A stretch of DNA of 50,791 nucleotides from Gemmatimonadota bacterium (GTDB taxonomy: Bacteria > Gemmatimonadota > Gemmatimonadetes > Gemmatimonadales > GWC2-71-9), in NCBI GenBank assembly GCA_029262155.1, contig JAJCZW010000195.1, positions 1 to 50,791 of the forward strand. The letters run 5' to 3'. The notes beneath the pieces are model-generated. The model was not told where the DNA came from and ran no database searches. It saw only the letters and a program-made list of their open reading frames with translations. Positions 35,783 to 50,687 of the stretch are shown here, one piece after another. Positions within the stretch are counted from its first letter, which is position 1; the number at the start of each line of letters is the position of its first letter. Both the position numbers and the translations under genes were made by a program.

Positions 35783-37311
35783 GACGAGCAGTAGGCGCGT
35801 TCATACTTCTCGCATGGGTTGCCTCACTTGGATGGCTCCTGTCGCGTACCTCTTCTGACCAGCGAAGCCTTGTGGCAGCCGGTCAGCGGCTTGCGCCCTT
35901 CTCGGGGTATTACACCGCCAAGTTGGGAGGGGAGCAGATTGGCCTCGGTACCGTTTTTACGGATACCACCGAGTCCTCCTTTCGGGTCAACAACCTCCTC
36001 TCGCTCGATCTGCTCATCCAGGGACAACCGATCCGTTTCGGGTATCGGTCTGATAGTTACTTCGATCGTGGACTGGCACTCCAGACCGGCGACGAGACCG
36101 TGAGCGATGGGACCGCCTCGACCCGATACACCATCGTATCAGATAGTAGCGATTCTGCCCGCATGCATCTGCGCACCGCGTCGCCGATGACCGCCGATCT
36201 GGGTGCTGACGTGGCGGGGTCGAGTCCAGCCCCGGCCACGCTCGCCCGTGCCATCCCCTATCAGATGGTTCTTGCTGATCGTCTTACCAATGACCTCGCA
36301 ACCCCCAACCAAGTCTTTGATCCGGCCGATGGCAGCCTCCGGTTTGACAACATTCGGGTCGTCGGCGAATCGACCTTCGTCGTGCCCGACAGCGCCGTCC
36401 TTGACCCAGAGGGCCACTGGCGCCCCGCCACGACCCTGACCGTCCGCGCGTGGCAGCTGGAGCATGCGCCCTACGGGCTCCCGACCTCGACCTGGGTCGA
36501 CAGCAGGGGCAACCTCGTAGCGGAGCAGAATCTGTTTGGTGTGGGATGGAACCGAACGGCATTCGAAATAGCCCGGAACAACTATCGATCGCGTGTGGCC
36601 ACCGACGGCATCACCATTACAGCCTCGTTGTCAGGCGCCAGACCCTGGGCTGGCTCTGGCCTTGCCCCACTTCCTGGGGATAGCCTCCGCCTCATGATGG
36701 GTCGGACCGACGACTGGCCATTGCCTCAGCCACTCCTCCGCGGTTTGGAGGGCGGTCGGCAGCGACTCGACCATGGGTACCTGATCTCCACGCGGACGAC
36801 TCCGCCGGCCGAAAGCGAGACCGCCCCCATGGGGTATAGCGTCCGGTATGTGGGGCGAGAGGTCGAGAGTGTTGTCACCGATCGGGCACGACGCCTCGCT
36901 GGCAAGGCCACCGATCGCCTCCTCATCACCAAGCGTCTGTTGGCGTGGGTCGCATCCAACATCGCGCTCGATACGTCGATGGGCGCACCGCTTCGCCCGC
37001 CTGACGTGTTAGCCGCCCAACGGGCTGGGAGCGACGGCCGTTCCCGGCTCCTCGCCGCGATGCTCCGATCAGAGCGCATCCCAGCGCGCGTGGTGACGGG
37101 CGTGGTGCTCACCGTGGAGGGACAGCTGGGGCATTCCTGGGTCGAGGTTTGGCTCGACGGATGGGTCGCAGCCGACCCCCAGTCTGGGACCCTCCCGGCC
37201 AGTCCTGCGCTCATCAGGCTTCGGGAAGGTGGGCGCAGTCGCCCGGTAGACCTCGTTCCCCTCATTGCAGCCCTTCGTGTTCAACCCTATCCCTGGCAGG
37301 TTCGTCGATGA
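35779..37311 (+). CDS. Membrane-anchored transglutaminase-like domain protein
   Basis: N-terminal TM; C-terminal LLAAMLRSERIPARVVTG...HSWVEVWLDGWVAADP. Confidence 0.85.
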   Translation: MRRAVGAFILLAWVASLGWLLSRTSSDQRSLVAAGQRLAPFSGYYTAKLGGEQIGLGTVFTDTTESSFRVNNLLSLDLLIQGQPIRFGYRSDSYFDRGLALQTGDETVSDGTASTRYTIVSDSSDSARMHLRTASPMTADLGADVAGSSPAPATLARAIPYQMVLADRLTNDLATPNQVFDPADGSLRFDNIRVVGESTFVVPDSAVLDPEGHWRPATTLTVRAWQLEHAPYGLPTSTWVDSRGNLVAEQNLFGVGWNRTAFEIARNNYRSRVATDGITITASLSGARPWAGSGLAPLPGDSLRLMMGRTDDWPLPQPLLRGLEGGRQRLDHGYLISTRTTPPAESETAPMGYSVRYVGREVESVVTDRARRLAGKATDRLLITKRLLAWVASNIALDTSMGAPLRPPDVLAAQRAGSDGRSRLLAAMLRSERIPARVVTGVVLTVEGQLGHSWVEVWLDGWVAADPQSGTLPASPALIRLREGGRSRPVDLVPLIAALRVQPYPWQVRR

Positions 37312-38063
37312 TCGTCATCCAGGATCTGACCAAAACGTACGGCAAGTTCACCGCAGTGAATGGGATCAGCCTCCACATTCCCCCAGGGCAACTCTTCGGG
37401 TTCCTCGGACCCAATGGCGCTGGCAAAACCACCACGATGCGGATGATCGCAGGGATATTGAAACCGACCGCGGGGACGATCGAAGTGGCCGGCCTCAACA
37501 TCGTGCGCTATCCGATGAGCGCCAAATCGAAGTTAGGGTACATCCCCGATCGGCCCTATGTGTACGACAAGCTCACCGGAGCGGAGTTCATGCGCTTTGT
37601 GGCCGCACTCTACGGCCAGGAAGGGAAAGGCATTGAGCGCCGTATCGATGAGCTACTCGACCTCTTCGAACTCACTCGCTGGAAGAACGAACTCACGGAA
37701 TCATACAGCCATGGCATGCGCCAGAAGCTGATCATCTCGAGTGCGTTGGTCCACCGTCCTGAAGTGATCGTCGTGGACGAACCGATGGTTGGCCTGGATC
37801 CCAAGAGTGGGAAACTCCTCAAGGATATCTTCCGTCACTTCGTGGGACTCGGGGGCACGGTCCTGATGAGTACGCACACGCTGGAGATCGCCGAATCGAT
37901 GTGTGACCGGATCGGCATCATCCAACACGGCCACATCATCGCCGAAGGCACGATGGATGAACTCCGCGTCCAGCATGACACCGACGCCACATTGGAGCAA
38001 CTGTTCCTCAAGTTGACGGGTGGTATCACGGAGCGAGAACTCGGAGCCATCCTCAGTGACTGA
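37308..38063 (+). CDS. ABC transporter ATP-binding protein
   Basis: GPNGAGKTT, YSHGMRQK, VVDEP, STH; ATGA coupling. Confidence 0.95.
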   Translation: MIVIQDLTKTYGKFTAVNGISLHIPPGQLFGFLGPNGAGKTTTMRMIAGILKPTAGTIEVAGLNIVRYPMSAKSKLGYIPDRPYVYDKLTGAEFMRFVAALYGQEGKGIERRIDELLDLFELTRWKNELTESYSHGMRQKLIISSALVHRPEVIVVDEPMVGLDPKSGKLLKDIFRHFVGLGGTVLMSTHTLEIAESMCDRIGIIQHGHIIAEGTMDELRVQHDTDATLEQLFLKLTGGITERELGAILSD

Positions 38064-39789
38064 GGATATCGGCCCTTCGGGTGGGAGGCACGGACACCCG
38101 ACCCCACCGACACAGCCCCACCTCTGGACGATCCTGATCCCCAAGTGGCAGAGCATGCTCGCGCGTGGACGCCAGGATCGGAGTCTAATCAGGCTGGTGC
38201 TCCTCGGTCTCATCGCCCTCATTTTCTGGGCCGCGGTCTTCGGGATCGCGTACCGTGTCATCGACTATTTCCAGGGCGTGGAAGAAATCGGCAACCTCCT
38301 TGCCGGCAAAGTATTGGGGATGACCCTTTTGGCGTTCAGCGGGGTCTTGTTGCTCTCCAACCTGGTCACCGCACTTTCGACTTTCTTTTTGGCGAAGGAC
38401 CTCGACATGCTGGTGGCGGCGCCAGTCGATTGGCTCCGCATCTACCTCGCCAAACTCAGTGAGACCCTGGTCCACAGCTCGTGGATGGTGGCACTGCTGA
38501 TTCTCCCGATCCTGAGTGCCTATGGAGTGGTATATGGTGGGGGGTGGCTTTTCCCCTTCGTGGCAATCGCGGCGCTCACACCCTACCTGCTTCTTCCCAC
38601 GGTGGTCGGCAGCGGCATCACCCTGATCCTGGTGAACGTTTTCCCTGCCCGTCGGACCCGAGACCTCCTGAGCCTCGTAGCGCTGGGAGCGGTTGGAGGG
38701 GTTGTACTCCTCTTACGTGTCGTCCGCCCGGAGCAGTTAGCCCGGCCCGAGGGGTTCAACAACCTGGTCGATTTCCTGGTGGTCCTTCGGGCACCAACGA
38801 ACCCGTTTCTCCCCAGCGAGTGGGCCTCCCAAGCCATCATGAATTGGCTCCTTGAGGTCGCCGACCCGCTCCCGCTCGCACTCCTATGGACCAGCGCGGG
38901 AGCATTCATCGTGCTAGGCGCCGCCCTCCATCGGCGGCTCTATGCGTCAGGTTTCTCGAAGGCCCAGGAGGGCGCGGAGAATTTTGTGCGGGGGCGCACC
39001 ATGTCGCGGATCCTTGCGCCGATGCTCGGTTGGTTACCGGCGACCCGTCGGGAGTTCATTCTCAAAGATCTCCGACTCTTCTTTCGAGACACCACGCAGT
39101 GGAGCCAACTCATTCTCCTTGCGGTACTCCTGATCGTCTACGTCTTCAATATTCGCGCATTGCCGATTTTCACCGGTGAACGGGTTCCGTTTACCCTGGT
39201 GACTCTCATCGCCTTTCTGAATCAAGGCCTTTCAGGGTTTGTGCTTGCCGCGATCGCGGCTCGATTCGTCTTCCCCTCGATCTCACTCGAAGGACGACAG
39301 CTCTGGCTACTCCGATCCAGCCCCCTCAATATGCGGGCGATGATGTGGAGCAAATACTGGATCGGGACGGCCCCACTGTTGGTCCTGGCGGTCGGGATCA
39401 CCGTTCTCACCAATGTGCTCCTCCGCGCCTCGCCGTTCATGATGGGGGTTAGCCTGCTGACGACTGTGGTGTTTACGCTAACGCTTGGTGCACTCGGTGT
39501 GGGGCTCGGGATCCTCTACCCCCAATTCGACACCGAAAACGCGGCCCAGATTCCCACAAGCTTTGGCGGATTGGTGTTCATGATGACGTCGATCAGCCTC
39601 CTCGCAGTGATCATCGTTATCGAGGCCACACCGGTCGCTAGCTACCTCCGGGCCCGCCAAGCAGGTACCGCACCTGGCCTCACCGGGACCCTGGTCTTGT
39701 CCCTCGGCCTCGTGGTCGCGATATGTGCCCTGACGATGTTCATGTCACTCCGGATCGGTATCCGCCGTTTGGAATCGCTGGAAGTCTAG
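38056..39789 (+). CDS. Putative ABC exporter permease (multi-TM)
   Basis: Many TM segments; KDLRLFFRD, SLEGRQLWLLRSSP, KYW motifs. Confidence 0.88.
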   Translation: MTEDIGPSGGRHGHPTPPTQPHLWTILIPKWQSMLARGRQDRSLIRLVLLGLIALIFWAAVFGIAYRVIDYFQGVEEIGNLLAGKVLGMTLLAFSGVLLLSNLVTALSTFFLAKDLDMLVAAPVDWLRIYLAKLSETLVHSSWMVALLILPILSAYGVVYGGGWLFPFVAIAALTPYLLLPTVVGSGITLILVNVFPARRTRDLLSLVALGAVGGVVLLLRVVRPEQLARPEGFNNLVDFLVVLRAPTNPFLPSEWASQAIMNWLLEVADPLPLALLWTSAGAFIVLGAALHRRLYASGFSKAQEGAENFVRGRTMSRILAPMLGWLPATRREFILKDLRLFFRDTTQWSQLILLAVLLIVYVFNIRALPIFTGERVPFTLVTLIAFLNQGLSGFVLAAIAARFVFPSISLEGRQLWLLRSSPLNMRAMMWSKYWIGTAPLLVLAVGITVLTNVLLRASPFMMGVSLLTTVVFTLTLGALGVGLGILYPQFDTENAAQIPTSFGGLVFMMTSISLLAVIIVIEATPVASYLRARQAGTAPGLTGTLVLSLGLVVAICALTMFMSLRIGIRRLESLEV

Positions 39790-39802: not shown

Positions 39803-40825
39803 CTACTCTGGATGCTTCCGGAAGATGTCCTCCAATACCACCCGATCGATCTTGCCGTCCATCCGTACTCGCACGTCGTAGTTTTCCCAGTACATGAAGT
39901 TCTTGAGGGCCGCAAGGAAGGTGGGGTTGGCAGTGCCCTGCGATGCTCCAAGCCACTTGTCGGGCTGGCCCTCCGGCTCCCGAAGGAGGATCGGCTCCAA
40001 TCGTGCAACCAGTGCGGGCGTGAGATCCAAGAGATCTTTCGGATCGCTCGGGAAGAAGTACAGTTTGTGGAGCGTGAGAAGCCGGTCGAGTTCGGCAATA
40101 GGATCGACCGCATCATAGACGCGGAGATCGATGAACCGATCGTTCGCCCCCAGGTAACCACCGCCAGCCCGTACCACGAGCAACGCGGCTGACTCCATAC
40201 CCCGCTTGTCCCCACCTCCCGCCTGACCCGCCTTCAGGGCCGCCAGCAACCTGTCCGCAAGTGGTCCCTCGGATGCCAGGAAGGAGGACGCCATGTTCGC
40301 CACAGTCTGGTCCGATACCATGATATTCGCCTGGACGGCAAACCCGCGACCCTGGATGGCAGCTCCCTTCCCGCCCAAGATGGAGCCGCCATGCCCATCA
40401 CCGACCCGTCCGCCGGCCCAGTCAAACGTGGTCGTGCCGGTAAAACTGGCGGCACCCCCATGCGAATCGACCAAGCCCACCTGACGGTCCGATAGCGACG
40501 TATCGCTCCGCATGATGATAGCGAGCGCTTCCGCCGCCGTCGCTCCTTCCGCGATCAACGTGAGGCCACGGTCACCGTACTCGGTGTTTGCGAGGCTCTG
40601 GGTGGCGACAGCCCCTATCCCGGCTTTGGCCCATGGAACAATGCCACCCACGTTGGGGAACTTCGACTGCACGGCCACACCGAGGTCACCGGTCACTGAA
40701 TCGAACGCGACGATGCTGTAGGTATGGGCGAGACGGTGGAAGTGTCCCGGCGGAGTCATCGGTTGCTGGGCGGCAAGAACGTTCGCCACGAGTAGACCGA
40801 AAGTTGGGATCAGCAGGCGCGGCAT
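39803..40825 (-). CDS. DUF1028 family (Ntn-hydrolase-like) exported protein
   Basis: HTYSIVAFD...GVAVQS, GAVATQS, GGDKRGMESAALLV, IDLRV. Confidence 0.9.
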   Translation of the reverse strand: MPRLLIPTFGLLVANVLAAQQPMTPPGHFHRLAHTYSIVAFDSVTGDLGVAVQSKFPNVGGIVPWAKAGIGAVATQSLANTEYGDRGLTLIAEGATAAEALAIIMRSDTSLSDRQVGLVDSHGGAASFTGTTTFDWAGGRVGDGHGGSILGGKGAAIQGRGFAVQANIMVSDQTVANMASSFLASEGPLADRLLAALKAGQAGGGDKRGMESAALLVVRAGGGYLGANDRFIDLRVYDAVDPIAELDRLLTLHKLYFFPSDPKDLLDLTPALVARLEPILLREPEGQPDKWLGASQGTANPTFLAALKNFMYWENYDVRVRMDGKIDRVVLEDIFRKHPE

Positions 40826-41030
40826 GGTAACTCCGTGGTCGGTGATGCCGAAAGATAGTCACACCCACCGGCGGCCATCCGCTGTGACGTCCGGGAGGTC
40901 ATTCCACCGTCCCGCCATCCTGCAGGTAGCCCGCGGCTGAATGATCCGTCGCCGCGATGATCCGGTACCTCAAAGGATCTCACACGGGCGAGGTTGATCC
41001 TGAAACCGAAACCAGGGATGCCAGGAGCCC

Positions 41031-41687
41031 ATGCCACAATTTCATACCCGTTCGACCTACCGACTGGCCCGCGTCGTGGTAGGGGTCCTTCCCGCCATCC
41101 TCCTCAGCCTCGGAGCACTCCGCCCAACGCCCCTCGCAGTGAGCCTGTCCCAAGCTGCGGCTCGCGTGCTCCCCGCCCCATCCGGATCCCGCGTCCTCCC
41201 AGCTGGGGAGATGGTCTGGCAGCGCTCATTGAACGACTGCGGGCCGGCATCGCTGGCAAACTACCTCCGTGCGAACGGCGCCGGGGGCAGCCACCTGCCG
41301 CCGGTACCGGATCTCGATTCTCTCGATCGTCTTGCGATCCTCACACCGACCGGGACTCGGTTGGGAGACCTTGCCGACGCCGCGACGAAAGCTGGCTGGC
41401 CGAGCTGGGTAGCGCGGGTTGATCCAACGGAGGGAGCTGCCTCGCTACGCGGCGACCGGTTGCCAGCCATTGCCTGGATCGAGCAATCTCACTTTGTGAC
41501 CCTGACGCGCCTAGTGGCCGGGGACTCCGTCGAAATGATCGACCCGATGCGCGGGCGCTTGCTGGTGTCATGGAATGGGTTGTTGGCGGTTTGGCGAGGC
41601 GAGTTCTTGAACCGAGAACGACCCCCTGCCGCTGCCTCCGCACGTTTCTTGTTTCCCTCTTCCCCTTTACCCAGGAGTCATTCATGA
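41031..41687 (+). CDS. Standalone C39 cysteine peptidase with an N-terminal signal/anchor
   Basis: Q...DCGPASL (oxyanion Gln, catalytic Cys), LPAIAW...HFV (His), IDP (Asp), WRG; AGGAG RBS; no ABC domains. Confidence 0.9.
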   Translation: MPQFHTRSTYRLARVVVGVLPAILLSLGALRPTPLAVSLSQAAARVLPAPSGSRVLPAGEMVWQRSLNDCGPASLANYLRANGAGGSHLPPVPDLDSLDRLAILTPTGTRLGDLADAATKAGWPSWVARVDPTEGAASLRGDRLPAIAWIEQSHFVTLTRLVAGDSVEMIDPMRGRLLVSWNGLLAVWRGEFLNRERPPAAASARFLFPSSPLPRSHS

Positions 41688-41965
41688 GGACTGTCCATCA
41701 CTTCGGCCTCGCGTTCCTGTTGGCACTCAGCATTGCGAGCCTCCCGGTAACGACCACCGCAGCGACAGAACGCACCCCAACCCCTCAGGCGGTTCAAGTC
41801 GAGGGCCGGGGACTCCTCAGCATCATTGGATGCGTGGGATGCGTGGCAGGAGGCTTGGCGATTGCAATGAATGGTGCGGCCGCTCTCCTCGCCGCTGCAT
41901 TCTCCGAAGGATCTGCCCTCGCCGTGGCCGGTTGCATTGCCATCTGCGCCGATGCCATAGGCTGA
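41684..41965 (+). CDS. Putative peptide precursor A (93 aa): signal peptide, pro-region, hydrophobic 4-Cys core
   Basis: AGGAG RBS; ATGA overlap with the C39 gene; QVEGRG followed by LLSIIGCVGC...CIAICADAIG. Confidence 0.85.
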   Translation: MRTVHHFGLAFLLALSIASLPVTTTAATERTPTPQAVQVEGRGLLSIIGCVGCVAGGLAIAMNGAAALLAAAFSEGSALAVAGCIAICADAIG

Positions 41966-41999
41966 TACCACCCCTACCACCTTCGGAAGGAGCAAATCG

Positions 42000-42305
42000 A
42001 TGTCTCCAAGACTGATGACTCTGCGACAGGGACTCGCCGCCCTGCTCTTCGCCTTTCCCCTCTTGGGGTTTGCGCCCCCAGCGACTGCCACAGCCGACGA
42101 CCCTTCTCCAACCGCGTCAATCGAGCAGGTGGACGCACACCAGGTCATCGGACGCGGGATTCTGGCGAAGCTCGCGTGCATTGCCTGCCTCGCGGGACTC
42201 TTGTCTGTGGCAGGGTTTACGGTGGGTGGCATTCTGATCACAGCACTTGCCTATCCCGAAGTCACCGCACTTTGCGGATTGGGATGCGCCGTTGCATTTG
42301 GTTGA
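42000..42305 (+). CDS. Putative peptide precursor B (101 aa), paralog of A
   Basis: AAGGAG RBS; signal ending ATA; QVIGRG followed by ILAKLACIAC...CGLGCAVAFG. Confidence 0.87.
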   Translation: MSPRLMTLRQGLAALLFAFPLLGFAPPATATADDPSPTASIEQVDAHQVIGRGILAKLACIACLAGLLSVAGFTVGGILITALAYPEVTALCGLGCAVAFG

Positions 42306-42324
42306 GCCGTCTCCGAGTGGCAAA

Positions 42325-42352
42325 GGCCCTCTCCCAGGCGAGGGGGAGGGTC
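42325..42352 (+). promoter_or_regulatory. GC-rich stem-loop after the precursor genes, covering the next RBS
   Basis: GGCCCTCTCCC-AGGCGA-GGGGGAGGGTC, an 11-bp stem with 2 G-U pairs; no U-tract. Confidence 0.65.
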
Positions 42353-42354
42353 CG

Positions 42355-42903
42355 ATGCTCGCACCACCGTCGATGTCGTCCGGGACGCGTTGGAAGGCAG
42401 GAGGTTTGCTCGGCGGATGTGGGCTCCTGGCGCTCTGGATCGCGCATGGGGTAGCCACCTCAAGGCTTGAGAAGATCGTCACACCATTTCCGGCCCACAA
42501 TCTCCGCGGTCAGCTGCCGAGTGGCGCCTCGTGGACCGGTGGAAGCGGTGGGGCGGAGATCCTCCTCTATGTCGATCAACACTGCGCCTACTGCAAAGAA
42601 GAGCTGCACGCCTGGTCGACCTCACTCGCGTTGACCTCAAGGACGCCAGCCCCTCGCGTCGTCTTGTCCCCACGCTCGGATACCCAGCACGACTCCTACC
42701 TTCCCTCTCGGTTTCGAGGAATGTGGATCCACGACCGTGACACCGTCATCGCTCGGGCGCTAGCCCTCAGAGGGGTCCCGACAACGGTCGTGATCATCGA
42801 TAACCGTGTGACCGCAATACGATCGGGCCTCACGTCGGCAGCAGCAAAAGACAGCCTGCTCCAGATCGTCAGCGTCTCGGGGCCGGCCGGAGGAGAGCTG
42901 TGA
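42355..42903 (+). CDS. Membrane-anchored thioredoxin-fold thiol-disulfide oxidoreductase
   Basis: TM segment, LLYVDQHCAYCKEEL (CxxC), LRGVPTTVVI (cis-Pro loop). Confidence 0.82.
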   Translation: MLAPPSMSSGTRWKAGGLLGGCGLLALWIAHGVATSRLEKIVTPFPAHNLRGQLPSGASWTGGSGGAEILLYVDQHCAYCKEELHAWSTSLALTSRTPAPRVVLSPRSDTQHDSYLPSRFRGMWIHDRDTVIARALALRGVPTTVVIIDNRVTAIRSGLTSAAAKDSLLQIVSVSGPAGGEL

Positions 42904-43574
42904 GTCCACCATTCAATACCACGAACGTCCGAAGGAGCAACCGGCTGGCTCACCAGCTTCAACTCTGTATTCCTACGATGAAAGAGATCGCGGTGGAACG
43001 CCCTTTAATCCCACCCATCCTGGTCGCGACGATCCTCGCACTGGGTGCGGCAGGTACGCTGGCGCCTCTGCTCCCATTGGCTTTCCGGAATTCCTCGCCC
43101 GCGCTGGCGGTCTCACTTCGTCAGTGGCTCTGGATCATCGGATTCCTCACTCCCCTCATTGTGGTGCTCAAAGGGACACTCTCTACCGGGCTCGCCTGGG
43201 GATGGCTGACCCTGAACGGCGTACCGGTCGCCCCACGCGCCCTCTTTTCCATCCTCTTTTATGGAGAGGCAGTGCTTGGCTTGCAAGGTGCCGTTATCGG
43301 GGCAGCACTCCGGTTTCTGGGGACGGCACGACTTCGCACACCAGCCGACCTTTTCCTGCCAACCGGAGCCGATCTCTTTGGCTTGCCCCATCACCCGTTG
43401 GCCCACGCCGTGGTTCAGCATCTCTCCATCTTTCATGTAGCATGGTTCACACTCCTGCTCGTCGGTCTGCCGGCTCTCACCACGTGCTCCCGACGCGTCG
43501 CAGGAAGCACTGCGCTCTTCCTCTGGACGGTATCGGTAGGAATAGATGCGGTGCGCGCGTGGGGACAGGTATGA
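42900..43574 (+). CDS. Multi-pass membrane protein, Yip1-like
   Basis: About 5 TM segments, LSIFHVAWFTLLLVGL; overlapping start and stop with both neighbours. Confidence 0.65.
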   Translation: MSPPFNTTNVRRSNRLAHQLQLCIPTMKEIAVERPLIPPILVATILALGAAGTLAPLLPLAFRNSSPALAVSLRQWLWIIGFLTPLIVVLKGTLSTGLAWGWLTLNGVPVAPRALFSILFYGEAVLGLQGAVIGAALRFLGTARLRTPADLFLPTGADLFGLPHHPLAHAVVQHLSIFHVAWFTLLLVGLPALTTCSRRVAGSTALFLWTVSVGIDAVRAWGQV

Positions 43575-44293
43575 CCGAAGCCGTCGCAGTGACCGATCTC
43601 GCGGTCCGCTACCCAGGCTTCACATTGCAGCCAGTTTCGCTCCGCATGGACCTCGGCGAGCGCGTCGCCCTCCTGGGGGCCAATGGATCTGGCAAGACAA
43701 CACTCCTCAACGCCATTGCAGGACGACGACCCGGGCATGGTGGGCAGATGCAGATCGTAGGACACCCACCCAACCCACCACCGTGGACTCTGAGCCAGTC
43801 GATCGGGTTCCTCGGCGACCATCTCCTCGGACTCGGATGGATGACCGTCGCAGAACATTTGCAATTCCTTCGTCCATTCTACCCCCGGTGGGACAGCGCA
43901 TATGTCGAGGAGCTGGTCGACCGACTTCAGATTCCTTGGCACACAAAGCTCGGCCATCTCTCGCGCGGGATGACGGTCAAACTTGGATTTGTCAGTGCGG
44001 AAGCCTTTCGCCCCCCGGTCCTTCTCATGGATGAACCAACGGCAGGCCTTGATCCGGTCGTCCGCAATGAACTCCTGGACGTCTTAGACAGTGCCTGCGG
44101 TCTTGGGCCTCGACTCGTCCTATTCTCAACCCATCTCCTCGAAGACGTGGAAACACTTGGAACACGGGTCATAGTCCTCCATGAGGGCCACGTTGTTATC
44201 GATCGATCGGTCGACGAGATCCAAGCCGATTCACATCAACCTTTTCACACCATTCTTCGGGGGCTCGTAACACTCCATGGACACGCGGCATAG
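43571..44293 (+). CDS. ABC transporter ATP-binding protein
   Basis: GANGSGKTT, LSRGM, LLMDEPTAGLDP, STH. Confidence 0.94.
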   Translation: MTEAVAVTDLAVRYPGFTLQPVSLRMDLGERVALLGANGSGKTTLLNAIAGRRPGHGGQMQIVGHPPNPPPWTLSQSIGFLGDHLLGLGWMTVAEHLQFLRPFYPRWDSAYVEELVDRLQIPWHTKLGHLSRGMTVKLGFVSAEAFRPPVLLMDEPTAGLDPVVRNELLDVLDSACGLGPRLVLFSTHLLEDVETLGTRVIVLHEGHVVIDRSVDEIQADSHQPFHTILRGLVTLHGHAA

Positions 44294-44978
44294 GGCACTT
44301 CTCGCACTGGAACTCAGGCGGACTGCCCCAGGGACGTTTCGGTTTCTCGCGGTTGTCGCGCTGATCACGTTGGTCGCAACCCTCGTCGGGCAGGCAACAC
44401 CAGATACCCTGGCTATGGTCTGGACGGGACTCACGACGGGATACGTGGTACAGCTTCCACTCGCAGCGCTGCGCGATAAGATTGAGGGTGGAATGGAATT
44501 CCTTTGTAACCTCCCCATTCCACGATCCGGCCTAGCGACCGCTCGCCTCCTCGCAGGTGGCGTCCTGGCGCTCCCGGCGGCAGCGCATCTCTTCTTGGCC
44601 GCCTGGTATGTATTCCCCCTTCTTGAACTCCACCGGGGCGCCCTGTCACTTCTTTCCATCTTCGGAATCGCGTGGATCGGGTTCGCCGCGATCATCAACA
44701 CGATGACCGCACTGATCATCCGATATCGGATCCAGGACCTCACCAGTACGCCGCTGGTGATCGCCACCCTCGGAGGATTAGGCTTCGTCATGCTTCTCGA
44801 TCGCCTCGTGCCCGACCCGCAGGCGCTGCTTAGAACGCTCCTTCACCAGTGGTGGCTCCCTCCCATGGTGGTTGGCATCCTCCTGGCTGGTTCGCTTCTC
44901 CTGCTGGCGATTGCCCGCTGGGTCATGATTCGAGGCTTTACTGGATACACACCGCGAGGTGATTCGATCAGTTGGTAA
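44277..44978 (+). CDS. ABC-2 type permease
   Basis: About 6 TM segments; DKIEGGMEFLCNLPIPRSGL motif. Confidence 0.85.
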   Translation: MDTRHRALLALELRRTAPGTFRFLAVVALITLVATLVGQATPDTLAMVWTGLTTGYVVQLPLAALRDKIEGGMEFLCNLPIPRSGLATARLLAGGVLALPAAAHLFLAAWYVFPLLELHRGALSLLSIFGIAWIGFAAIINTMTALIIRYRIQDLTSTPLVIATLGGLGFVMLLDRLVPDPQALLRTLLHQWWLPPMVVGILLAGSLLLLAIARWVMIRGFTGYTPRGDSISW

Positions 44979-45130
44979 TCCCGTTCCATTGGGACAAGGG
45001 ACGGTGTGGAGGGACAGCCCGAGGAGGGGTGGGTCGAGATCTCCAAGACCGGGCAGGCGGCACCATTGAGTTTGCTGGGGCCTCACTGTTCCTCTAGACT
45101 TCAGATCACGATCCAACTTCCGGAGTCTGG

Positions 45131-46285
45131 ATGTCACCCCTCGATCCCTCGGCCAAGCCGATTCGGTACTGGCAGCGCCGTGGGACCCTGATCGCAGCTC
45201 TCTATCTCGCGGTGATGCTGGCCATCATTGAGGTGGGGCAAGTGTACTTCCGCTCCGCCCTAGAGGACTGGCCGATCTCGATCGGGGAAGCGGCTGTCCG
45301 AACGGTCGCATCCTGGATCTTGATCGGAGCCTTGCTCCCGCTCGTCCTCCTCATGGCAGAGCGACTTCCCTTGGCCCGCGGCGAACGGGTACGAGCCACC
45401 AGCATCCACATGGGTGTCTCAATCCTTTTTGGCCTCATTCATCTCAGTGGGATGGGCGTTGTGATCTGGCTCCAAGGCCACCAGGATCATCCCTTCACGG
45501 ACAATCTGGCATGGCTGCTCTCGGCGTACCTTGGCCTCGACATGTTGATCTACTGGGCCATCATCGGCGTGTCCCACACAGTTCGGTTCTATCATGAAGC
45601 ACGGGCACACTCGGTCAAAGCCGCTCGACTCGAGGTCAGCCTGAGTGAGGCACGATTGCGGGCGTTGCGAGCACAATTGAACCCACATTTTCTCTTTAAC
45701 ACGCTGAATGCCGTGAGTGGATTGGCCATTCGACATGGAGACGAGGACACTGCCGACGCACTCGGCCAGGTCAGCGAACTGATGCGATCGGCGATGGATG
45801 ACGATCGGGATCAGGAGATCACCCTTTCGGCCGAGCTCGACTTCACGACACGGTACCTCAACTTGCAACATCTCCGCTTTTCGGACCGGCTCTCGGTCGA
45901 TGTACAGGTCGGCGACGGGCTCGAAACAACGTTGGTTCCGGCCCTTCTGTTGCAACCACTCGTCGAGAATGCCCTCCTACACGGTATTGCGAATCATCCC
46001 GGCCCGGGGCGGGTGGCCATTACCGCCAGAGCCGTGGAAGGAGATAGGCTGCGAATTGAGGTCGAAGACTCGGGCCCAGGATTTGGTCCAGCAGCGTCGC
46101 GACGACCCGGCATCGGCATCGGGCTACGCAATACCCAGACGAGGCTGGCCCTGCTCTATCCCGATCAGCACTTTTTTGCCATCGGTTCCGCTCCCTCGGG
46201 AGGCGGCTTAGTCACCATTGACATCCCACTCAAGCACCAGCACGAGACCGATCCCGCTCGGCAGGCGGTGAGCCATGGGCCCTGA
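45131..46285 (+). CDS. LytS/YehU-type membrane sensor histidine kinase
   Basis: N-terminal TMs; LRAQLNPHFLFNTLN, LLQPLVENALLHG, GIGLRN. Confidence 0.95.
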   Translation: MSPLDPSAKPIRYWQRRGTLIAALYLAVMLAIIEVGQVYFRSALEDWPISIGEAAVRTVASWILIGALLPLVLLMAERLPLARGERVRATSIHMGVSILFGLIHLSGMGVVIWLQGHQDHPFTDNLAWLLSAYLGLDMLIYWAIIGVSHTVRFYHEARAHSVKAARLEVSLSEARLRALRAQLNPHFLFNTLNAVSGLAIRHGDEDTADALGQVSELMRSAMDDDRDQEITLSAELDFTTRYLNLQHLRFSDRLSVDVQVGDGLETTLVPALLLQPLVENALLHGIANHPGPGRVAITARAVEGDRLRIEVEDSGPGFGPAASRRPGIGIGLRNTQTRLALLYPDQHFFAIGSAPSGGGLVTIDIPLKHQHETDPARQAVSHGP

Positions 46286-47099
46286 CGGCATTCGAACGCT
46301 AATCGCAGACGATGAACCGCTGGCCCGGGAGGGCCTCAAGGCACGGCTGGCGCGGGAGCCCGATATCAATATCGTCGGAGAGACGAAAGATGGCCCGGAG
46401 ACGGTCGCCGCCATCCGGTCACTCCAGCCTGACCTCGTCTTGCTCGATATTCAGATGCCCGGTATGAATGGCTTCGACGTCCTCGGCGCACTCGGCGATG
46501 ATCCGATGCCGATTGTGGTCTTTGTTACCGCGTTCGACCAGTTTGCCCTTCGCGCCTTTGACGCGCATGCCGAGGACTATCTCCTCAAACCCTTCACCGC
46601 AACGCGACTCCAGGAAGCGCTCTCCCGCGTCCGTCGCGAAATCGCCCGTGCAGAGACTCTGGCGGCGCATGACCGGTTCGCTGGACTTCTCGATACTTAT
46701 CGTTCAGAGGTGACGCGGGCCGGAGTGACCGGGGCACCAGCCACCGACACCCCCGAGAGCCCTCCCACTGGCCCCCATTCTTGGACGGCCCGCTTCACCG
46801 TCAAAGATAGCGAACGCTTTCTGATCATCCCGGTTGAGAGTGTCGATTGGATTGAGGCAGCGGGAAACTATGCCGTATTGCACACTTCAGGGGGAGCCTA
46901 CAAGATCCGCGATACGATGACTCACCTTGCGAAGGCGCTCAACCCCTTGCATTTCGCTCGAATCCATCGTTCGGCAATCGTTCAGATCAGCAAAGTCAAA
47001 GAGATCCGCCCGGAGTGGCACGGGGATTTCGATGTCGAATTGATCACGGGAACGATTGTACGGATGAGTCGTCACTACCGCGAGCGGCTGCTTACGTAG
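46275..47099 (+). CDS. LytTR-family response regulator
   Basis: ADDEPLAR, LDIQMP, VFVTAFD, DYLLKP; WIEAAGNY, FARIHRSAIV, SRHYR. Confidence 0.96.
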   Translation: MGPDGIRTLIADDEPLAREGLKARLAREPDINIVGETKDGPETVAAIRSLQPDLVLLDIQMPGMNGFDVLGALGDDPMPIVVFVTAFDQFALRAFDAHAEDYLLKPFTATRLQEALSRVRREIARAETLAAHDRFAGLLDTYRSEVTRAGVTGAPATDTPESPPTGPHSWTARFTVKDSERFLIIPVESVDWIEAAGNYAVLHTSGGAYKIRDTMTHLAKALNPLHFARIHRSAIVQISKVKEIRPEWHGDFDVELITGTIVRMSRHYRERLLT

Positions 47100-47110
47100 G
47101 GTGTCGGACG

Positions 47111-47638
47111 TTAGACTGGGAGGGGAGCACCACTCGTCTTGATCGCATTGCCGCACCCGCCGCAGAACTTTTGTCCTGGGACGACTGCGGTGCCACAGAA
47201 AGCGCAAGCTTTATCCTGTACCAAGACGACACCGCACCCTGAACAAAAGCATGCATCCGCCTCAGGTCGTGGTCCGCAGGTCGGGCAGACCAAATGGCCC
47301 GACGGGAGATCAGCGGGTGATGGCCGGGCACGTTGTCCGGCGATCAGGGCTTCAATCTGACTATCGGCTGTCTCCTCCTCCTCGTTGCGGAGAGCCTGCA
47401 GTGCTTCGGCCGCATACCGCGACTGGAGCATCCGGTAATCTTCGTCCGACAGCTTCCCAGTTTCCCGATCGAGGTCCAGTTCCTTTAGTGCGAGCAGTGC
47501 GATGCCACGCGGCGTCTCATCCGGATCCTCAGGCTCGATCCACTCGGCCGCTGTGGTCGCGGGGCTCAGCAGTGGCTGGAAGATGAGCCACAACATCACC
47601 AGCGCGACAACCACGGCGGCTAGCATCTCGGCCCACAT
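47111..47638 (-). CDS. Membrane-anchored double zinc-ribbon protein (CcmI-like N-terminus)
   Basis: TM, LKELDLDRETGKLSDEDY, CPTC/CSGC/CAFC/CGGC. Confidence 0.85.
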   Translation of the reverse strand: MWAEMLAAVVVALVMLWLIFQPLLSPATTAAEWIEPEDPDETPRGIALLALKELDLDRETGKLSDEDYRMLQSRYAAEALQALRNEEEETADSQIEALIAGQRARPSPADLPSGHLVCPTCGPRPEADACFCSGCGVVLVQDKACAFCGTAVVPGQKFCGGCGNAIKTSGAPLPV

Positions 47639-47643
47639 CGGAG

Positions 47644-48222
47644 TCAGTCCACGACCTCAGACAGCGCTCGCTCCAGCCGAGCTTGGTCCTCTGCGCTGAC
47701 GTTCGCGGCGCCAGTCAGGACCGGGGCCGGAACGGGAGCAGCCGCTTGTCGCCGCATCAAGATGGCCGCGAGGAGGGTACCTGCGGCGGTGATGGCAAGC
47801 CCAGGCACGAGATATCCGGCAAGGTTGAATCCCTCGGGCGGGGGAGCCATGAGGATCTCCTCTCCGTATTCAGTCACAAACGCATCGATGATCTGGTCCG
47901 GTGTCGCTCCATTCTCGTGGAGGGCCACCACCTGCCGATGCAGCGCCGGAGAGACGGTACATGTGAAGTCGGTCGTGCGGCAGGTGAAGATGTCGAGATT
48001 GCAGCCGCAAGTACACTTCAGTTTGTGTTCGACTGTTTGAATGATTCCGTTGTTATCTCCCTCGACCACCGCGGGGCGGGACTGCACGGCCTCCGGGATA
48101 CTGAGACGGTCCGCCGGGGCCTCGGGGTCGCCGCCGGGCGATCCTTGCGTCGCTGCGTGGAGGGCTCGCCCGCCAACCAGCAGGGCACTGATACTTGTGA
48201 AAAAGGAACGTCGAGAAATCAT
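47644..48222 (-). CDS. ccmH: Cytochrome c biogenesis protein CcmH-like
   Basis: LKCTCGC, IIDAFVTEYGEEILMAPP, C-terminal TM; downstream of ccmF. Confidence 0.85.
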   Translation of the reverse strand: MISRRSFFTSISALLVGGRALHAATQGSPGGDPEAPADRLSIPEAVQSRPAVVEGDNNGIIQTVEHKLKCTCGCNLDIFTCRTTDFTCTVSPALHRQVVALHENGATPDQIIDAFVTEYGEEILMAPPPEGFNLAGYLVPGLAITAAGTLLAAILMRRQAAAPVPAPVLTGAANVSAEDQARLERALSEVVD

Positions 48223-50261
48223 ACCGGTACCGCCTCCTCCACCGCAGGTTCAACCGTTGCACCCTGCGTGCGCGTGAGCCCCGACCGAACCGCAGTTCGG
48301 CCTCCACCGGGCCACATGGTTATTAACCCACCAAGCACCAACACCCCACCACCAAACCACAGCCACCACACCAGTGGGTTCACTGTGACGGCATAGTTGG
48401 CTCGCTCTGTCCCACCGATGGATCCGGCGTACACCACGTAGAGATCTTCACGAAGCGTACTGCGAATCCCGACTTCTGTAGACGGCTCAAAGGTCTTGCG
48501 GTTAAAGCTGTCCACATGTTGACGCTTCTCAGAGGAGACGATCCCGGCGGCCTTTCCATCGATCTCCACCTGCAGTGTCGCCGCGGAGACAATCCGATTA
48601 AGCGCCGTGTACTGCGACACGCCGAGATGCGTCAATCGATACACGTGCCCAAAGGGGCTCCGGATTTCCGTAAACTCGCCCGGTGCGAGCGTGGCCTCTT
48701 GGGTAATCTTGAAGCTTGAGCCAACGAACGCCGCGAAATAAATCAGGATACCGGCATGCACGAGGTATCCCCCGTAGCGTCGACGATTCCGATTGATCAG
48801 CAAGCCCAAGGCAACCGGGAAGGATTCCCCGTGCATCCGAATCCGTGCGCGTACACCGCGATAAAACTCCTGCAGAATGGTGCCTGCTACGAACCCAATC
48901 AGACCCAGGGCCAGCACGGCTGAGCCTTCGCGCATTCCCATCCCAAACAACACGCTCGCCGTGACGAGTCCCAGAAGGACGGGGAAGATGAACTGACGTC
49001 TGAGGTTCGCCAGCGAACTCTTCCGCCAGGCGATCAGGGGCCCGATCCCTGTCAGCGCAAGCAAGAGCAGGCCGAGGGGGACGTTGACGCGATTAAAGAA
49101 TGGGGGCCCGACCGTGATCTTTACTCCGCGCACGGCTTCGGTCAGGATGGGGAAAAGCGTACCCCAGAGCACCGAGAAGGCGATGCCAACAAAGATCAGA
49201 TTGTTGAAGAGAAAAGCCGCTTCCCGACTCGCCACCGATTCGAGTTGTGCCTCCGGTTCCAGTTGGGGCCACCGAGTGTAGAGCAGGGTAAATCCAAAGA
49301 CACCCGCCAGCACCAGGAAGGCGAGAAAGAAATATCCTACGTTGGATTGGGCGAAACTATGGACGCTCGCAATCACACCTGATCGAGTGATGAAGGTTCC
49401 GAAGATGCTGAGCATAAAAGTCCCAAAGATCAACCCAAGATTCCAACGCTTGAGCATTCCCCGTTTCTCTTGGATCATGACGGAGTGGAGAAAGGCCGTC
49501 ATCGTCAGCCAAGGGAGAAGGCTGGCGTTCTCCACCGGATCCCATGCCCAGTAACCACCCCATCCCAGCTCGACGTAGGCCCACCACATCCCGAGGGTAA
49601 TTCCGACTGACAAGAAGAGCCACGAGAGCAACGTCCACTTGCGGATGGCGACGATCCAACCGCTATCGAGTCGGCGAGAGAGGAGAGCCGCGATGCCGAA
49701 CGCGAAGGGTATTGTGATACTGATATAACCGAGATAAAGCATCGGCGGGTGGATGACCATGCCAGGGTTCTGGAGTTGGGGATTCAGGCCATTCCCGTCC
49801 GCCGGTGTAAACCCCAGCCGGTCAAACGGGTTCGCTGCAAAGAGCATAGTGGCAACAAAAAAGACCACCACCGCTCCCGTGACCGCTGCCACGGTCGGCA
49901 TGAGTTCCTTGTGCCGTCGACTTGTCAGCGCCTGGGCCAGCGCCGCAAACACCGACAGCACCGTCGCCCAGAAGAGCAGGCTTCCCTTCTGACCGGCCCA
50001 GAAGGCAGTGACCACATAGGAGTCGGGGAGATTGCGAGAGGTATAGCTGGCGACGTATTCGATGTTGAAGTCGTGGGTAATGAGCCCTTGCCACAATGCG
50101 ATCGAGGCGACCAGCAACGCGGCACAGGTTGCGTACACCGAACGGATCGTGCTGGAGGCAAGCTCGGGCCGTGTCCGCCATGCTCCGGAAAAACCAACCA
50201 CGGCTCCCCAGAGCCCTGCCAACAACGCCATCCATAACGCGAACTCCCCGAGCAAGGTCAT
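48219..50261 (-). CDS. ccmF: Heme lyase CcmF
   Basis: WAGQKGSLL, GLNPQLQ, HPPMLYLGY, WGGYWAWDPVENAS, SVHSF. Confidence 0.97.
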   Translation of the reverse strand: MTLLGEFALWMALLAGLWGAVVGFSGAWRTRPELASSTIRSVYATCAALLVASIALWQGLITHDFNIEYVASYTSRNLPDSYVVTAFWAGQKGSLLFWATVLSVFAALAQALTSRRHKELMPTVAAVTGAVVVFFVATMLFAANPFDRLGFTPADGNGLNPQLQNPGMVIHPPMLYLGYISITIPFAFGIAALLSRRLDSGWIVAIRKWTLLSWLFLSVGITLGMWWAYVELGWGGYWAWDPVENASLLPWLTMTAFLHSVMIQEKRGMLKRWNLGLIFGTFMLSIFGTFITRSGVIASVHSFAQSNVGYFFLAFLVLAGVFGFTLLYTRWPQLEPEAQLESVASREAAFLFNNLIFVGIAFSVLWGTLFPILTEAVRGVKITVGPPFFNRVNVPLGLLLLALTGIGPLIAWRKSSLANLRRQFIFPVLLGLVTASVLFGMGMREGSAVLALGLIGFVAGTILQEFYRGVRARIRMHGESFPVALGLLINRNRRRYGGYLVHAGILIYFAAFVGSSFKITQEATLAPGEFTEIRSPFGHVYRLTHLGVSQYTALNRIVSAATLQVEIDGKAAGIVSSEKRQHVDSFNRKTFEPSTEVGIRSTLREDLYVVYAGSIGGTERANYAVTVNPLVWWLWFGGGVLVLGGLITMWPGGGRTAVRSGLTRTQGATVEPAVEEAVPV

Positions 50262-50264
50262 CGA

Positions 50265-50687
50265 CTACGCCTTGGTCGCGTTCGCGATCTCAGATTCGTA
50301 ACGCGACCCACATTTCGCCAGCACCTCGGTCGCGTGAAACACGCCATCGCGTCCGAGCTTCCCTTCCACAATGACCTCGATATCATTGGCGTCAGTAAAG
50401 GTGTCGGGCACGAGCCCGCGGTACGTGACCGGTACGGCCGTCACCCCATCGCTCACTTCAAAGTCGATCTGCTGGGTAGCGTCGTCCCGACGGATGGTTC
50501 CAGGGACCACCTTTGCCCCGACTTTCAGCCCCACATCATGGAAACTCGGATCCTGAACCGTGCGCTCAACGAGCTCTGTCGGGGTAAGGAAATAGACGCC
50601 GGTCGACCGGACGCCCTCCGCAATCAGGAACCCGACTCCGAGGACAATGACCGCTGCCCCTACCAGGAACTTCGAACTGGCCTTCAT
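50265..50687 (-). CDS. ccmE: Heme chaperone CcmE (CxxxY type)
   Basis: YFLTPTEL, VTYRGLVPDTF, VIVEGKL, VLAKCGSRY; GGAGG RBS. Confidence 0.93.
   Translation of the reverse strand: MKASSKFLVGAAVIVLGVGFLIAEGVRSTGVYFLTPTELVERTVQDPSFHDVGLKVGAKVVPGTIRRDDATQQIDFEVSDGVTAVPVTYRGLVPDTFTDANDIEVIVEGKLGRDGVFHATEVLAKCGSRYESEIANATKA

Follow-up and report, generated by a model that had tools for sequence, protein, structure and literature searches.

A conserved gene cluster of Gemmatimonadota as a candidate system for disulfide-stapled, hydrophobic hairpin peptides matured by an exported C39 peptidase

C39 peptidases are the textbook cytoplasmic leader peptidases fused to ATP-binding cassette (ABC) exporters. 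What, then, does a standalone, membrane-anchored C39 peptidase cut, and on which side of the membrane, where its gene is followed by two small genes with Sec-like signals, a thioredoxin-like protein and an ABC transporter? The question is raised by positions 41031 to 47099 of contig JAJCZW010000195.1 (assembly GCA_029262155.1) from a Gemmatimonadota bacterium, the whole 50,791-nt stretch of which was analysed and is called the window here. A seven-gene cluster at 41031-44978 encodes the C39 peptidase, precursors A and B, a TlpA-like CxxC oxidoreductase, a Yip1-like protein, an ABC ATPase and an ABC-2 permease. Gene content, conservation, motifs, intact catalytic residues and predicted topology, all of them taken at the sequence level, argue that this is a real, conserved peptide system with Sec-type precursors, an exported C39 peptidase and a dedicated oxidoreductase as its core, and that the peptides are probably matured and handled outside the cytoplasm. 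A first-pass annotation of the same DNA had proposed a secreted, bacteriocin-like disulfide-peptide system, an interpretation that is partly supported by the present comparisons.

The arrangement of the cluster recurs in related genomes. A pattern search with the C39 alignment, run on one genome per species, gave 61 loci, and these were scored for synteny with profiles built from three copies of each protein. The C39 peptidase, the precursors, the oxidoreductase, the Yip1-like protein and the ATPase are encoded on one strand and in one order in 32 of the 61 loci, and the permease follows in 30 of the 32, the contig ending before it in the other two. Because the identical order recurs in 32 of 61 related loci, sequence comparison argues that the gene arrangement is not due to chance. 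In a further locus (L026) the contig is cut off after the precursors, which brings the loci with precursors to 33, and the remaining 28 loci were scanned for precursor-like open reading frames (ORFs) only. ORF maps of G001, a genome of the same genus, and of G032, a genome of the same order, show the identical seven-gene order, and C39 homologues are present in 4 of 40 close relatives of the window genome. A word-index protein search with the C39 protein returned the query only; the relatives came from other searches, and so this result is no sign of uniqueness.

All cluster-bearing records are titled Gemmatimonadota, Gemmatimonadetes, Gemmatimonadales, Gemmatimonadaceae or Longimicrobiales, a restriction that does not show the cluster to be absent elsewhere, since the search patterns were derived from Gemmatimonadota sequences. 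Of 401 genomes sampled evenly across the phylum, 43 match the profile of the Yip1-like protein, and only the 20 with E≤7.7e-30 were taken as cluster carriers. Since about 20 of the 401 sampled genomes carry it, the cluster appears to be a patchy accessory trait in the phylum. The weak matches in the other 23 genomes (E 1e-11 to 1e-16) form a second, lone paralogue family; the three that were inspected (G254:C1:1669762-1670364, G076:C3:143127-143753 and G198:C4:80097-80711; L072-L074) have no C39, oxidoreductase or ABC partners nearby. One of the 23, the unpublished genome G199, is used solely in the count of 43.

The 33 loci encode 118 precursors between the C39 and oxidoreductase genes, with two small genes in 12 loci, four in 13, five in six and six in two. 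The homologous clusters thus do contain similar precursors with a common motif and cysteine pattern, on which the first-pass annotation had made its proposal depend. The 118 were retained from 134 candidate ORFs by dropping those with more than seven charged residues after the motif or more than four Arg in the last 60 residues; the dropped rows were judged to be out-of-frame artefacts, and cysteine-poor or divergent precursors, such as the fifth small ORF in L017, L019, L020 and L022, may have been lost with them. Precursors A and B of the window are paralogues of each other (35% identity, E 2.4e-5); a search of their own genome (3.2 Mb, 90% complete) gave no further copy.

All 118 precursors begin with K/R residues followed by a hydrophobic stretch in the manner of a Sec signal (about residues 1-27 in precursor A), and their leaders are 35 to 80 residues long, linker included. 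The sequences were aligned on the first glycine of the motif nearest to the first core cysteine, with GG, G-x-G or G-[AS]-Q as the anchor, so that the glycine at position 0 is fixed by construction while the frequencies at -2, +1 and +2 are not. Position -2 is aliphatic in 101 of the 118 precursors (V 78, I 17, L 6), position +1 is glycine in 41, alanine in 24, serine, glutamine and arginine in 12 each and threonine in seven, and position +2 is glycine in 72 and glutamine in 37. The processing motif is therefore (V/I)-x-G-x-(G/Q), that is, (V/I)-x-G-G-Q or (V/I)-x-G-x-G, and it reads V39-E40-G41-R42-G43 in precursor A and V49-I50-G51-R52-G53 in precursor B. Leaders of the classical double-glycine type have an aliphatic residue at -4 and a glycine at -2 relative to the cut. 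Because it matches the register of the canonical V-x-G-G leaders, a cut after V-x-G-x, leaving Gln or Gly as the new N-terminus, is the most likely; a cut after G-x-G is the alternative. The mature peptides would accordingly begin at G43 or L44 in precursor A and at G53 or I54 in precursor B. According to a passage of PMC12457901, the C39 domain of a glycocin system cuts after Gly-Lys, leaving Gly at +1. The leaders differ from those of class II bacteriocins, which are short, have no Sec signal and end in GG: glycine stands at +1 in 41 of the 118, and the others are mostly G-x-G. A lipoprotein signal was also considered, as a cysteine lies inside the hydrophobic region of many signals, but no consistent lipobox was seen by eye and the idea was dropped.

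Medians for the cores of the 118 precursors are 48 residues in length, 0 in net charge (range -4 to +5) and 1.35 in grand average of hydropathy (GRAVY). The first-pass annotation had expected two hydrophobic peptides of roughly 50 residues; across the family there are two to six per locus and no fixed pair. Four cysteines are present in 98 of the precursors, in every case spaced C-x2-C...C-x3-C, and two in the other 20. The cysteines are C50-x2-C53 and C84-x3-C88 in precursor A and C60-x2-C63 and C92-x3-C96 in precursor B. Among 30 sequences of the A-type family, G41, G43, C50, C53, G76, S77, C84 and C88 are invariant, as are G51, C60, C63, C92 and C96 among 30 sequences of the B-type family. 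AlphaFold2 models of both precursors consist of a signal helix, a low-confidence leader that is non-helical by DSSP, and a three-helix hairpin core. The core helices span residues 44-62, 65-72 and 77-92 in A, with a mean predicted local distance difference test (pLDDT) score of 76-89 per 10-residue block from residue 41, and residues 54-71, 75-84 and 86-100 in B, with a mean pLDDT of 83-93 per 10-residue block over residues 51-100. The first core helix begins directly after G-x-G (G43 in A and G53 in B). Since the first helix carries the CxxC motif close to its start and the last helix the CxxxC motif close to its end, two nested disulfides, predicted as C50-C88 and C53-C84 in precursor A, would close the core hairpin in these models. 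Nothing speaks for head-to-tail cyclisation as a further modification, neither a DUF95 protein nor a follower sequence being present.

Comparison of the 118 precursors with Pfam and NCBIfam gave no family match beyond noise, and a Foldseek search of the PDB with the precursor A model found nothing at E≤0.001, its single match having an E of 9.4. A profile of the A-type family matches 141 representatives at E≤1e-3, and 62 at E≤1e-10, among 1.84 billion; nearly all of them are 85 to 115 residues long. Ten of the 141 were looked up, none of which has a real name, one record carrying a stray character in its place.

Precursor genes of some Longimicrobiales loci show signs of rearrangement. In L029:8513-9510, L030:8450-9536 and L033:8522-9200, tandem, near-identical leaders (MTKSRTLVLALSLSVGLLGIHAG...) are joined to differing short Trp/Lys-rich four-cysteine cores (PWKKWxCxxCFGVG...), a pattern that looks like recent duplication and core diversification. 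In L034:8577-11449, an A-type precursor gene is apparently interrupted by about 2.5 kb of inserted DNA: its 5' part runs to '...AAIHM' and then into unrelated residues, and the C-terminal half that it lacks, '...IHMPGSALAVAGCIGACATM', is in the ORF ending at 11396. IHM, which both parts share, could represent a duplicated target site.

At 33.4 bits, with a cut-off of 22, the C39 protein of the window matches Pfam PF03412 above threshold (E 4.5e-8). A profile of 33 orthologues finds the peptidase domains of double-glycine type in PCAT1 (4ry2, E 1.8e-18), ComA (3k8u, E 5.7e-17) and LahT (6mpz, E 1e-14), with its Q/DCG, HFV and DP motifs in register with theirs. C39 peptidases have a catalytic Cys and His, a Gln as the oxyanion residue and an Asp; in the window protein the candidate catalytic residues are Q64, C70, H154 and D171, all of them intact and invariant in the 33 orthologues. 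All 33 proteins are standalone in their loci, are about 200 to 257 residues long and have a single N-terminal hydrophobic segment, which in the window protein is an anchor at about residues 12-28. Under the positive-inside rule, the positively charged flank of such an anchor stays cytoplasmic. The 15 residues before the segment contain 156 K/R residues in the 33 C39 proteins and the 15 residues after it 84; an N-terminal hydrophobic anchor is likewise present in all 33 oxidoreductases, with 113 K/R residues before and 68 after it. Since K/R residues are more numerous on the N-terminal side of the anchor in 33 of 33 and 33 of 33 proteins, the catalytic domains of the C39 peptidase and the oxidoreductase are predicted to lie outside the cytoplasm. 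Together with the charge and hydrophobicity of the precursor N-termini, this prediction agrees with the proposal of the first-pass annotation that Sec-type precursors meet an extracytoplasmic peptidase and oxidoreductase.

A peptidase-containing ABC transporter (PCAT) is defined as a C39 domain fused to a transmembrane exporter and an ATPase and facing the cytoplasm, which the standalone C39 protein of the cluster is not. A complex prediction for C39 residues 50-200 and precursor A residues 22-93, made from alignments and without controls, scored 0.01 against a mark of 0.32 and counts neither way for binding. The same locus search also returned true PCATs from other phyla, encoded by reading frames of about 2.1 to 2.3 kb. 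Small ORFs lie before the PCAT genes in the Deinococcales loci L046, L048, L060 and L067 and encode a canonical leader (...LQELSQNQMLEVSGG) joined to Gly/Ser/Asn-rich, low-complexity cores ending in CGG...GGCGC; they look like a separate, unusual peptide family.

The oxidoreductase of the window carries the motif CAYC and, taken alone, stays below threshold in Pfam (Thioredoxin_2, 19.1 bits against a cut-off of 27). Among 31 orthologues, AhpC-TSA is matched by 16, Redoxin by 12 and Thioredoxin_2 by six, and C77, C80 and V141-P142 are invariant; matches of their profile in the PDB include ResA, DsbF, StoA and DsbE (E 2e-8 to 1e-3). A thioredoxin fold, a CxxC motif, a cis-Pro and an N-terminal anchor are the features of TlpA/ResA/DsbE-like proteins, and by its profile matches, its CxxC, its Val-Pro pair and its anchor the protein is assigned to this extracytoplasmic thioredoxin family. 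The CxxC dipeptides are mostly x-His or x-Tyr (CVHC, CPHC, CGHC, CVYC and CPYC), a pattern that, as a lead only, is closer to that of DsbA, PDI, DsbC and DsbG, which are oxidases or isomerases, than to that of reductants. The protein is proposed to be an oxidase or isomerase for the precursor cysteines. The window genome, 90% complete, encodes a VKOR homologue (E 1.9e-29), and DsbB was not found in it.

The ATPase matches ABC_tran (E 2e-21), and its best NCBIfam match is PmtA, the exporter of phenol-soluble modulins (E 1e-36), where 126.7 bits against a cut-off of 350 mean that it is not an equivalog. The permease of the window has no Pfam match of its own; of 29 orthologues, 13 match ABC2_membrane_5 (best E 4.1e-9) and six match ABC2_membrane_3. 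The Yip1-like protein of the window also has no Pfam match, and its match to the NCBIfam model YknW is weak (E 0.0084, 15.6 bits against a cut-off of 110). Pfam Yip1 (PF04893) is matched by 4 of 27 orthologues (best E 0.0011), and in the ESM Atlas 23 of 30 matches of the protein are Yip1-bearing clusters (top score 0.94, 217 shared features). Its gene always lies between the oxidoreductase and ATPase genes in the syntenic loci. PDB profile searches with the Yip1-like and permease alignments gave nothing meaningful, and no DUF95/SpoIIM match was found in Pfam among the 27 Yip1-like proteins and 29 permeases. That Yip1 and ABC genes occur in circular bacteriocin clusters, as the first-pass annotation had noted, is stated in a passage of PMC8659200, which places Yip1 together with accessory ABC components, and Yip1 proteins are named for circular and leaderless bacteriocin clusters in passages of both PMC8659200 and PMC11580447. 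The transporter module may extract or release the hydrophobic products or protect the producer, which is the least supported step of the scheme.

Maturation would proceed as follows. The Sec-type N-terminal signal would target the precursors (two here, up to six elsewhere) to the inner membrane, so that the hydrophobic core and a linker some 20 to 30 residues long are exposed on the periplasmic side, where the membrane-held C39 peptidase, with its catalytic domain outside, would cut them at (V/I)-x-G-x-(G/Q). The TlpA-like oxidoreductase would then link the first helix to the last through two nested disulfides, CxxC pairing with CxxxC, or through a single disulfide in paralogues with two cysteines, to give a stapled helical hairpin of about 48 residues, and the VKOR homologue encoded elsewhere in the genome could re-oxidise the enzyme. 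The ABC-2 transporter and its Yip1-like partner would pull the products from the membrane of the producer, for release or for self-protection, in a step that would resemble the action of systems of the Pmt, LanFEG and YknWXYZ types. The peptides would most likely serve as membrane-active, bacteriocin-like agents of competition.

The genes of the cluster are closely packed (Table 1). All nine genes between 41031 and 47099 lie on the plus strand at the coordinates that the first-pass annotation had given, and its description of a co-oriented run with overlapping genes is accurate: overlaps of 4 to 17 nt are found at the C39/precursor A, oxidoreductase/Yip1-like, Yip1-like/ATPase and ATPase/permease junctions. 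The ATG of precursor A overlaps the stop codon of the C39 gene (ATGA) and has AGGAG upstream; a gap of 34 nt separates precursors A and B, with GGAAGGAG upstream of B; the ATG of the oxidoreductase gene at 42355 is preceded by GGGGGAGGG, which resembles a ribosome-binding site; and the GTG of the Yip1-like gene at 42900 overlaps the oxidoreductase stop codon. A promoter and terminator scan of 40700-47400 showed nothing promoter-like upstream of 41031, and the interval from 44978 to 45131 was free of terminators, in both cases with a method that does not model the promoters of this phylum and is uninformative for it.

Table 1. Positions and properties of the nine genes of the locus in the window
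Feature	Position	Strand	Remarks
C39 peptidase	41031..41687	+	standalone, membrane-anchored, double-glycine type, 218 aa; Pfam PF03412
Precursor A	41684..41965	+	93 aa; Sec-like signal, linker, motif 41798-41812, core 41813 to 41962
Precursor B	42000..42305	+	101 aa; signal, linker, motif 42144-42158, core 42159 to 42302
TlpA/ResA/DsbE-family thiol:disulfide oxidoreductase	42355..42903	+	182 aa, membrane-anchored; C77-A-Y-C80 at 42583-42594
Yip1/YknW-like polytopic membrane protein	42900..43574	+	224 aa; GTG start
ABC transporter ATPase	43571..44293	+	240 aa; ABC_tran
ABC-2 type permease	44277..44978	+	233 aa; family from orthologue matches
LytS-type histidine kinase	45131..46285	+	Pfam His_kinase PF06580, HATPase_c
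LytTR response regulator	46275..47099	+	Pfam Response_reg, LytTR; overlaps kinase gene

The last two genes of the run encode a LytS-type kinase (His_kinase, E 9.1e-25) and a LytTR regulator (Response_reg, E 5e-24; LytTR, E 2e-19), the kinase gene starting 153 nt after the permease gene. LytTR regulators often control peptide loci, and the first-pass annotation had counted the pair as part of the system. Since the profiles of the window kinase and regulator match in none of the 32 syntenic loci, the pair is an accidental neighbour in this genome and not a part of the peptide system. It is missing at this position in both other genomes of the genus (G001; L011, L012) and in G032; the permease gene is directly followed by ccm genes in G001 and by unrelated genes in G032. 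In G001 the best kinase homologue is on a different contig, and with this query G002 and G032 gave none. The position of the pair between the cluster and the ccm genes, seen in this genome only, suggests local insertion or loss.

The other neighbours of the cluster lie on both sides of it. An ABC ATPase and a 589-aa ABC_tran_2 membrane protein (PF16949, E 9e-112) are encoded just upstream at 37149-39789; this pair is also upstream of the cluster in G001 (L008:10397-12479) and not in G032, and the two are probably neighbours only within the genus. A DUF1028 protein (E 2.6e-63) is encoded on the minus strand at 39803-40825 between the upstream ABC pair and the C39 gene, whereas in G001 the ABC pair directly adjoins the C39 gene with nothing between. 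Downstream, ccmE, ccmF, ccmH and a double-zinc-ribbon gene occupy the minus strand at 47111-50687, with no ccmG between F and H.

The cluster may represent an undescribed peptide class, so far found only in Gemmatimonadota, in which Sec export, periplasmic C39 cleavage and oxidative stapling would be followed by ABC-2/Yip1 extraction of transmembrane-like hairpins. Several observations weigh against the maturation scheme given above. The charge and GRAVY of the cores are unlike those of typical cationic bacteriocins and resemble those of membrane-resident hairpins, being as hydrophobic as transmembrane segments. The topology was assigned from hydrophobic segments and our own K/R counts, without a dedicated predictor; the Yip1 assignment is under threshold in every curated library; the fold family of the oxidoreductase also holds reductants, such as ResA and CcmG; and a G-x-G whose second glycine follows R, Q or T departs from the canonical C39 site. 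A lookup of sequencing runs with the window DNA listed no RNA run, and the one DNA run, which contains 0.94 of the sampled words of the window and may be its source sample, is labelled as a biofilm metagenome. Gemmatimonadota have two membranes, and the cluster encodes no outer-membrane exit that would account for release from the cell. Because the cores are uncharged and transmembrane-like and the cluster has no outer-membrane component, a secreted bacteriocin may be only one of several functions, a structural or self-acting role being also open to such cores. The same maturation would then yield structural or surface-active peptides of the envelope or biofilm, comparable with phenol-soluble modulins or the Fap amyloid system, or small membrane proteins acting on the producer. 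This is unlikely but deserves serious consideration: besides the nature of the cores, the missing exit and the biofilm label of the sole run, the top NCBIfam match of the ATPase, below its cut-off, is an exporter of phenol-soluble modulins, and FapD, the only characterised exported C39 protein as presented in a passage of PMC5557850, serves amyloid secretion. Two to six divergent paralogues beside a dedicated ABC-2 and Yip1 module, by contrast, have the usual look of bacteriocin and immunity genes, Pfam scans of the cluster proteins gave no Fap-type repeats and no FapF-like barrel, and the patchy distribution fits an accessory trait.

Other explanations would change the place of cleavage or the purpose of the genes. 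If the cluster were a split PCAT, a cytoplasmic C39 peptidase would cut the leader before ABC export, and the N-terminal hydrophobic segments would not be Sec signals. The cluster does contain ABC genes, and a passage of PMC5557850 gives the cytoplasmic face of ABC exporters as the normal place of action of C39 domains; however, the arrangement of K/R before the hydrophobic segment in 33 of 33 C39 anchors and in 118 of 118 precursors, the lack of any such segment in the canonical leaders beside the true PCATs of the four Deinococcales loci, an ABC-2 type permease of about 233 aa in place of a large PCAT exporter domain, and an oxidoreductase from an extracytoplasmic family make this improbable. 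That the peptides are quorum-sensing pheromones sensed by the adjacent LytS/LytTR pair is more improbable still. The pair lies close by on the same strand and belongs to a type that commonly governs peptide loci, but it has no counterpart in the syntenic loci or at this position in the same-genus genomes, and stapled hydrophobic hairpins of about 48 residues in two to six paralogues are unlike known pheromones. The presence of ccmH, ccmF and ccmE just downstream without ccmG between them, next to a TlpA/DsbE-like oxidoreductase, could mean that the genes for the oxidoreductase and the ABC transporter function in envelope redox or in the maturation of cytochrome c and that the small ORFs and the C39 gene are unrelated or spurious, which is scarcely credible: the ccm genes are adjacent only within the genus, and the small ORFs are conserved in 33 loci and 141 database representatives. 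An identity of the oxidoreductase with CcmG was itself rejected, as TIGR00385 (dsbE) gave six matches in its own genome, none of which is this gene, and the G032 cluster has no adjacent ccm genes. The best dsbE-like match in the window genome is on another contig (C81:19569-19961), below the family cut-off.

If it is a peptide class with maturation outside the cytoplasm, the cluster would matter in several ways. The pairing of an exported C39 peptidase with adjacent, motif-bearing candidate substrates in 33 loci makes the specificity and purpose of exported C39 proteins directly testable, and would be the first natural protease-substrate pairing for the exported C39 branch, the FapD class; it would also be a new route to membrane-active competition peptides in two-membraned bacteria. 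The precursors form a ribosomal peptide family outside the curated models and outside the literature found by searches: full-text searches, with supplementary files outside their reach, gave no description of this arrangement, and Pfam scans of the cluster proteins gave no PCAT, glycosyltransferase, radical SAM, YcaO, lanthionine synthetase or SpoIIM/DUF95 family. Both results are in line with the first-pass annotation, which had named the same absences and recognised no known class. Gemmatimonadota are mostly uncultured, and the literature searches found no peptide natural product of this kind reported from them. If the products are active, compact disulfide-stapled hydrophobic hairpins made by a simple route (a signal, one protease and one oxidoreductase) would be attractive for heterologous production.

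How, finally, does the cluster compare with known systems? FapD of the Pseudomonas Fap amyloid operon is, in the passage of PMC5557850 that describes it, a Sec-exported C39 protease active in the periplasm, with an unclear substrate and belonging to a class yet to be characterised, and so resembles the C39 protein of the cluster as predicted, FapD being compared here by description and not by sequence. Unlike the Fap operon, the cluster has no families like FapA, B, C, E or F in Pfam scans of its proteins, and its candidate substrates are adjacent and share a conserved motif. Glycocins have a wider cysteine spacing than the C-x2-C/C-x3-C of the cluster, which also differs from them in having predicted Sec export in place of a PCAT, a two-membrane host and no glycosyltransferase, all seven genes being accounted for in the Pfam scans. 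In common with sublancin and other glycocins, as a passage of PMC12457901 presents them, it has a thioredoxin-like gene and would have helical peptides with two nested disulfides and leader removal by a C39 domain. The weak YknW match and the lack of a MacB-type permease, a membrane-fusion protein and SdpAB set the cluster apart from SDP/YknWXYZ of Bacillus. The SDP toxin is reportedly a hydrophobic, disulfide-containing peptide from a Sec-exported precursor, and the Yip1-family protein YknW is said to act with an ABC transporter, an organisation that the cluster would share. A passage of PMC4887032 describes YknWXYZ as a pump that shields Bacillus against the SDP toxin it makes itself. Circular and leaderless bacteriocin clusters also place Yip1 and accessory ABC components beside very hydrophobic helical peptides, as far as the passages of PMC8659200 and PMC11580447 go, whereas the present cluster has no DUF95/SpoIIM protein in Pfam scans, long signal-bearing leaders and nothing indicating cyclisation.

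The double-glycine leader systems, which include ComA, PCAT1 and LahT and serve class II bacteriocins, microcins and glycocins, differ from the cluster in that its peptidase is standalone, anchored and predicted to face outward, its leaders are Sec-like, no PCAT is present, and its ABC transporter is of the ABC-2 type with a Yip1-like partner. They nevertheless are its closest relatives in mechanism: both have a peptidase of the same family with intact Q, C, H and D residues, leaders ending in (V/I)-x-G-G or G-x-G with an aliphatic residue at the equivalent of -4, and several small, hydrophobic, paralogous peptides per locus.

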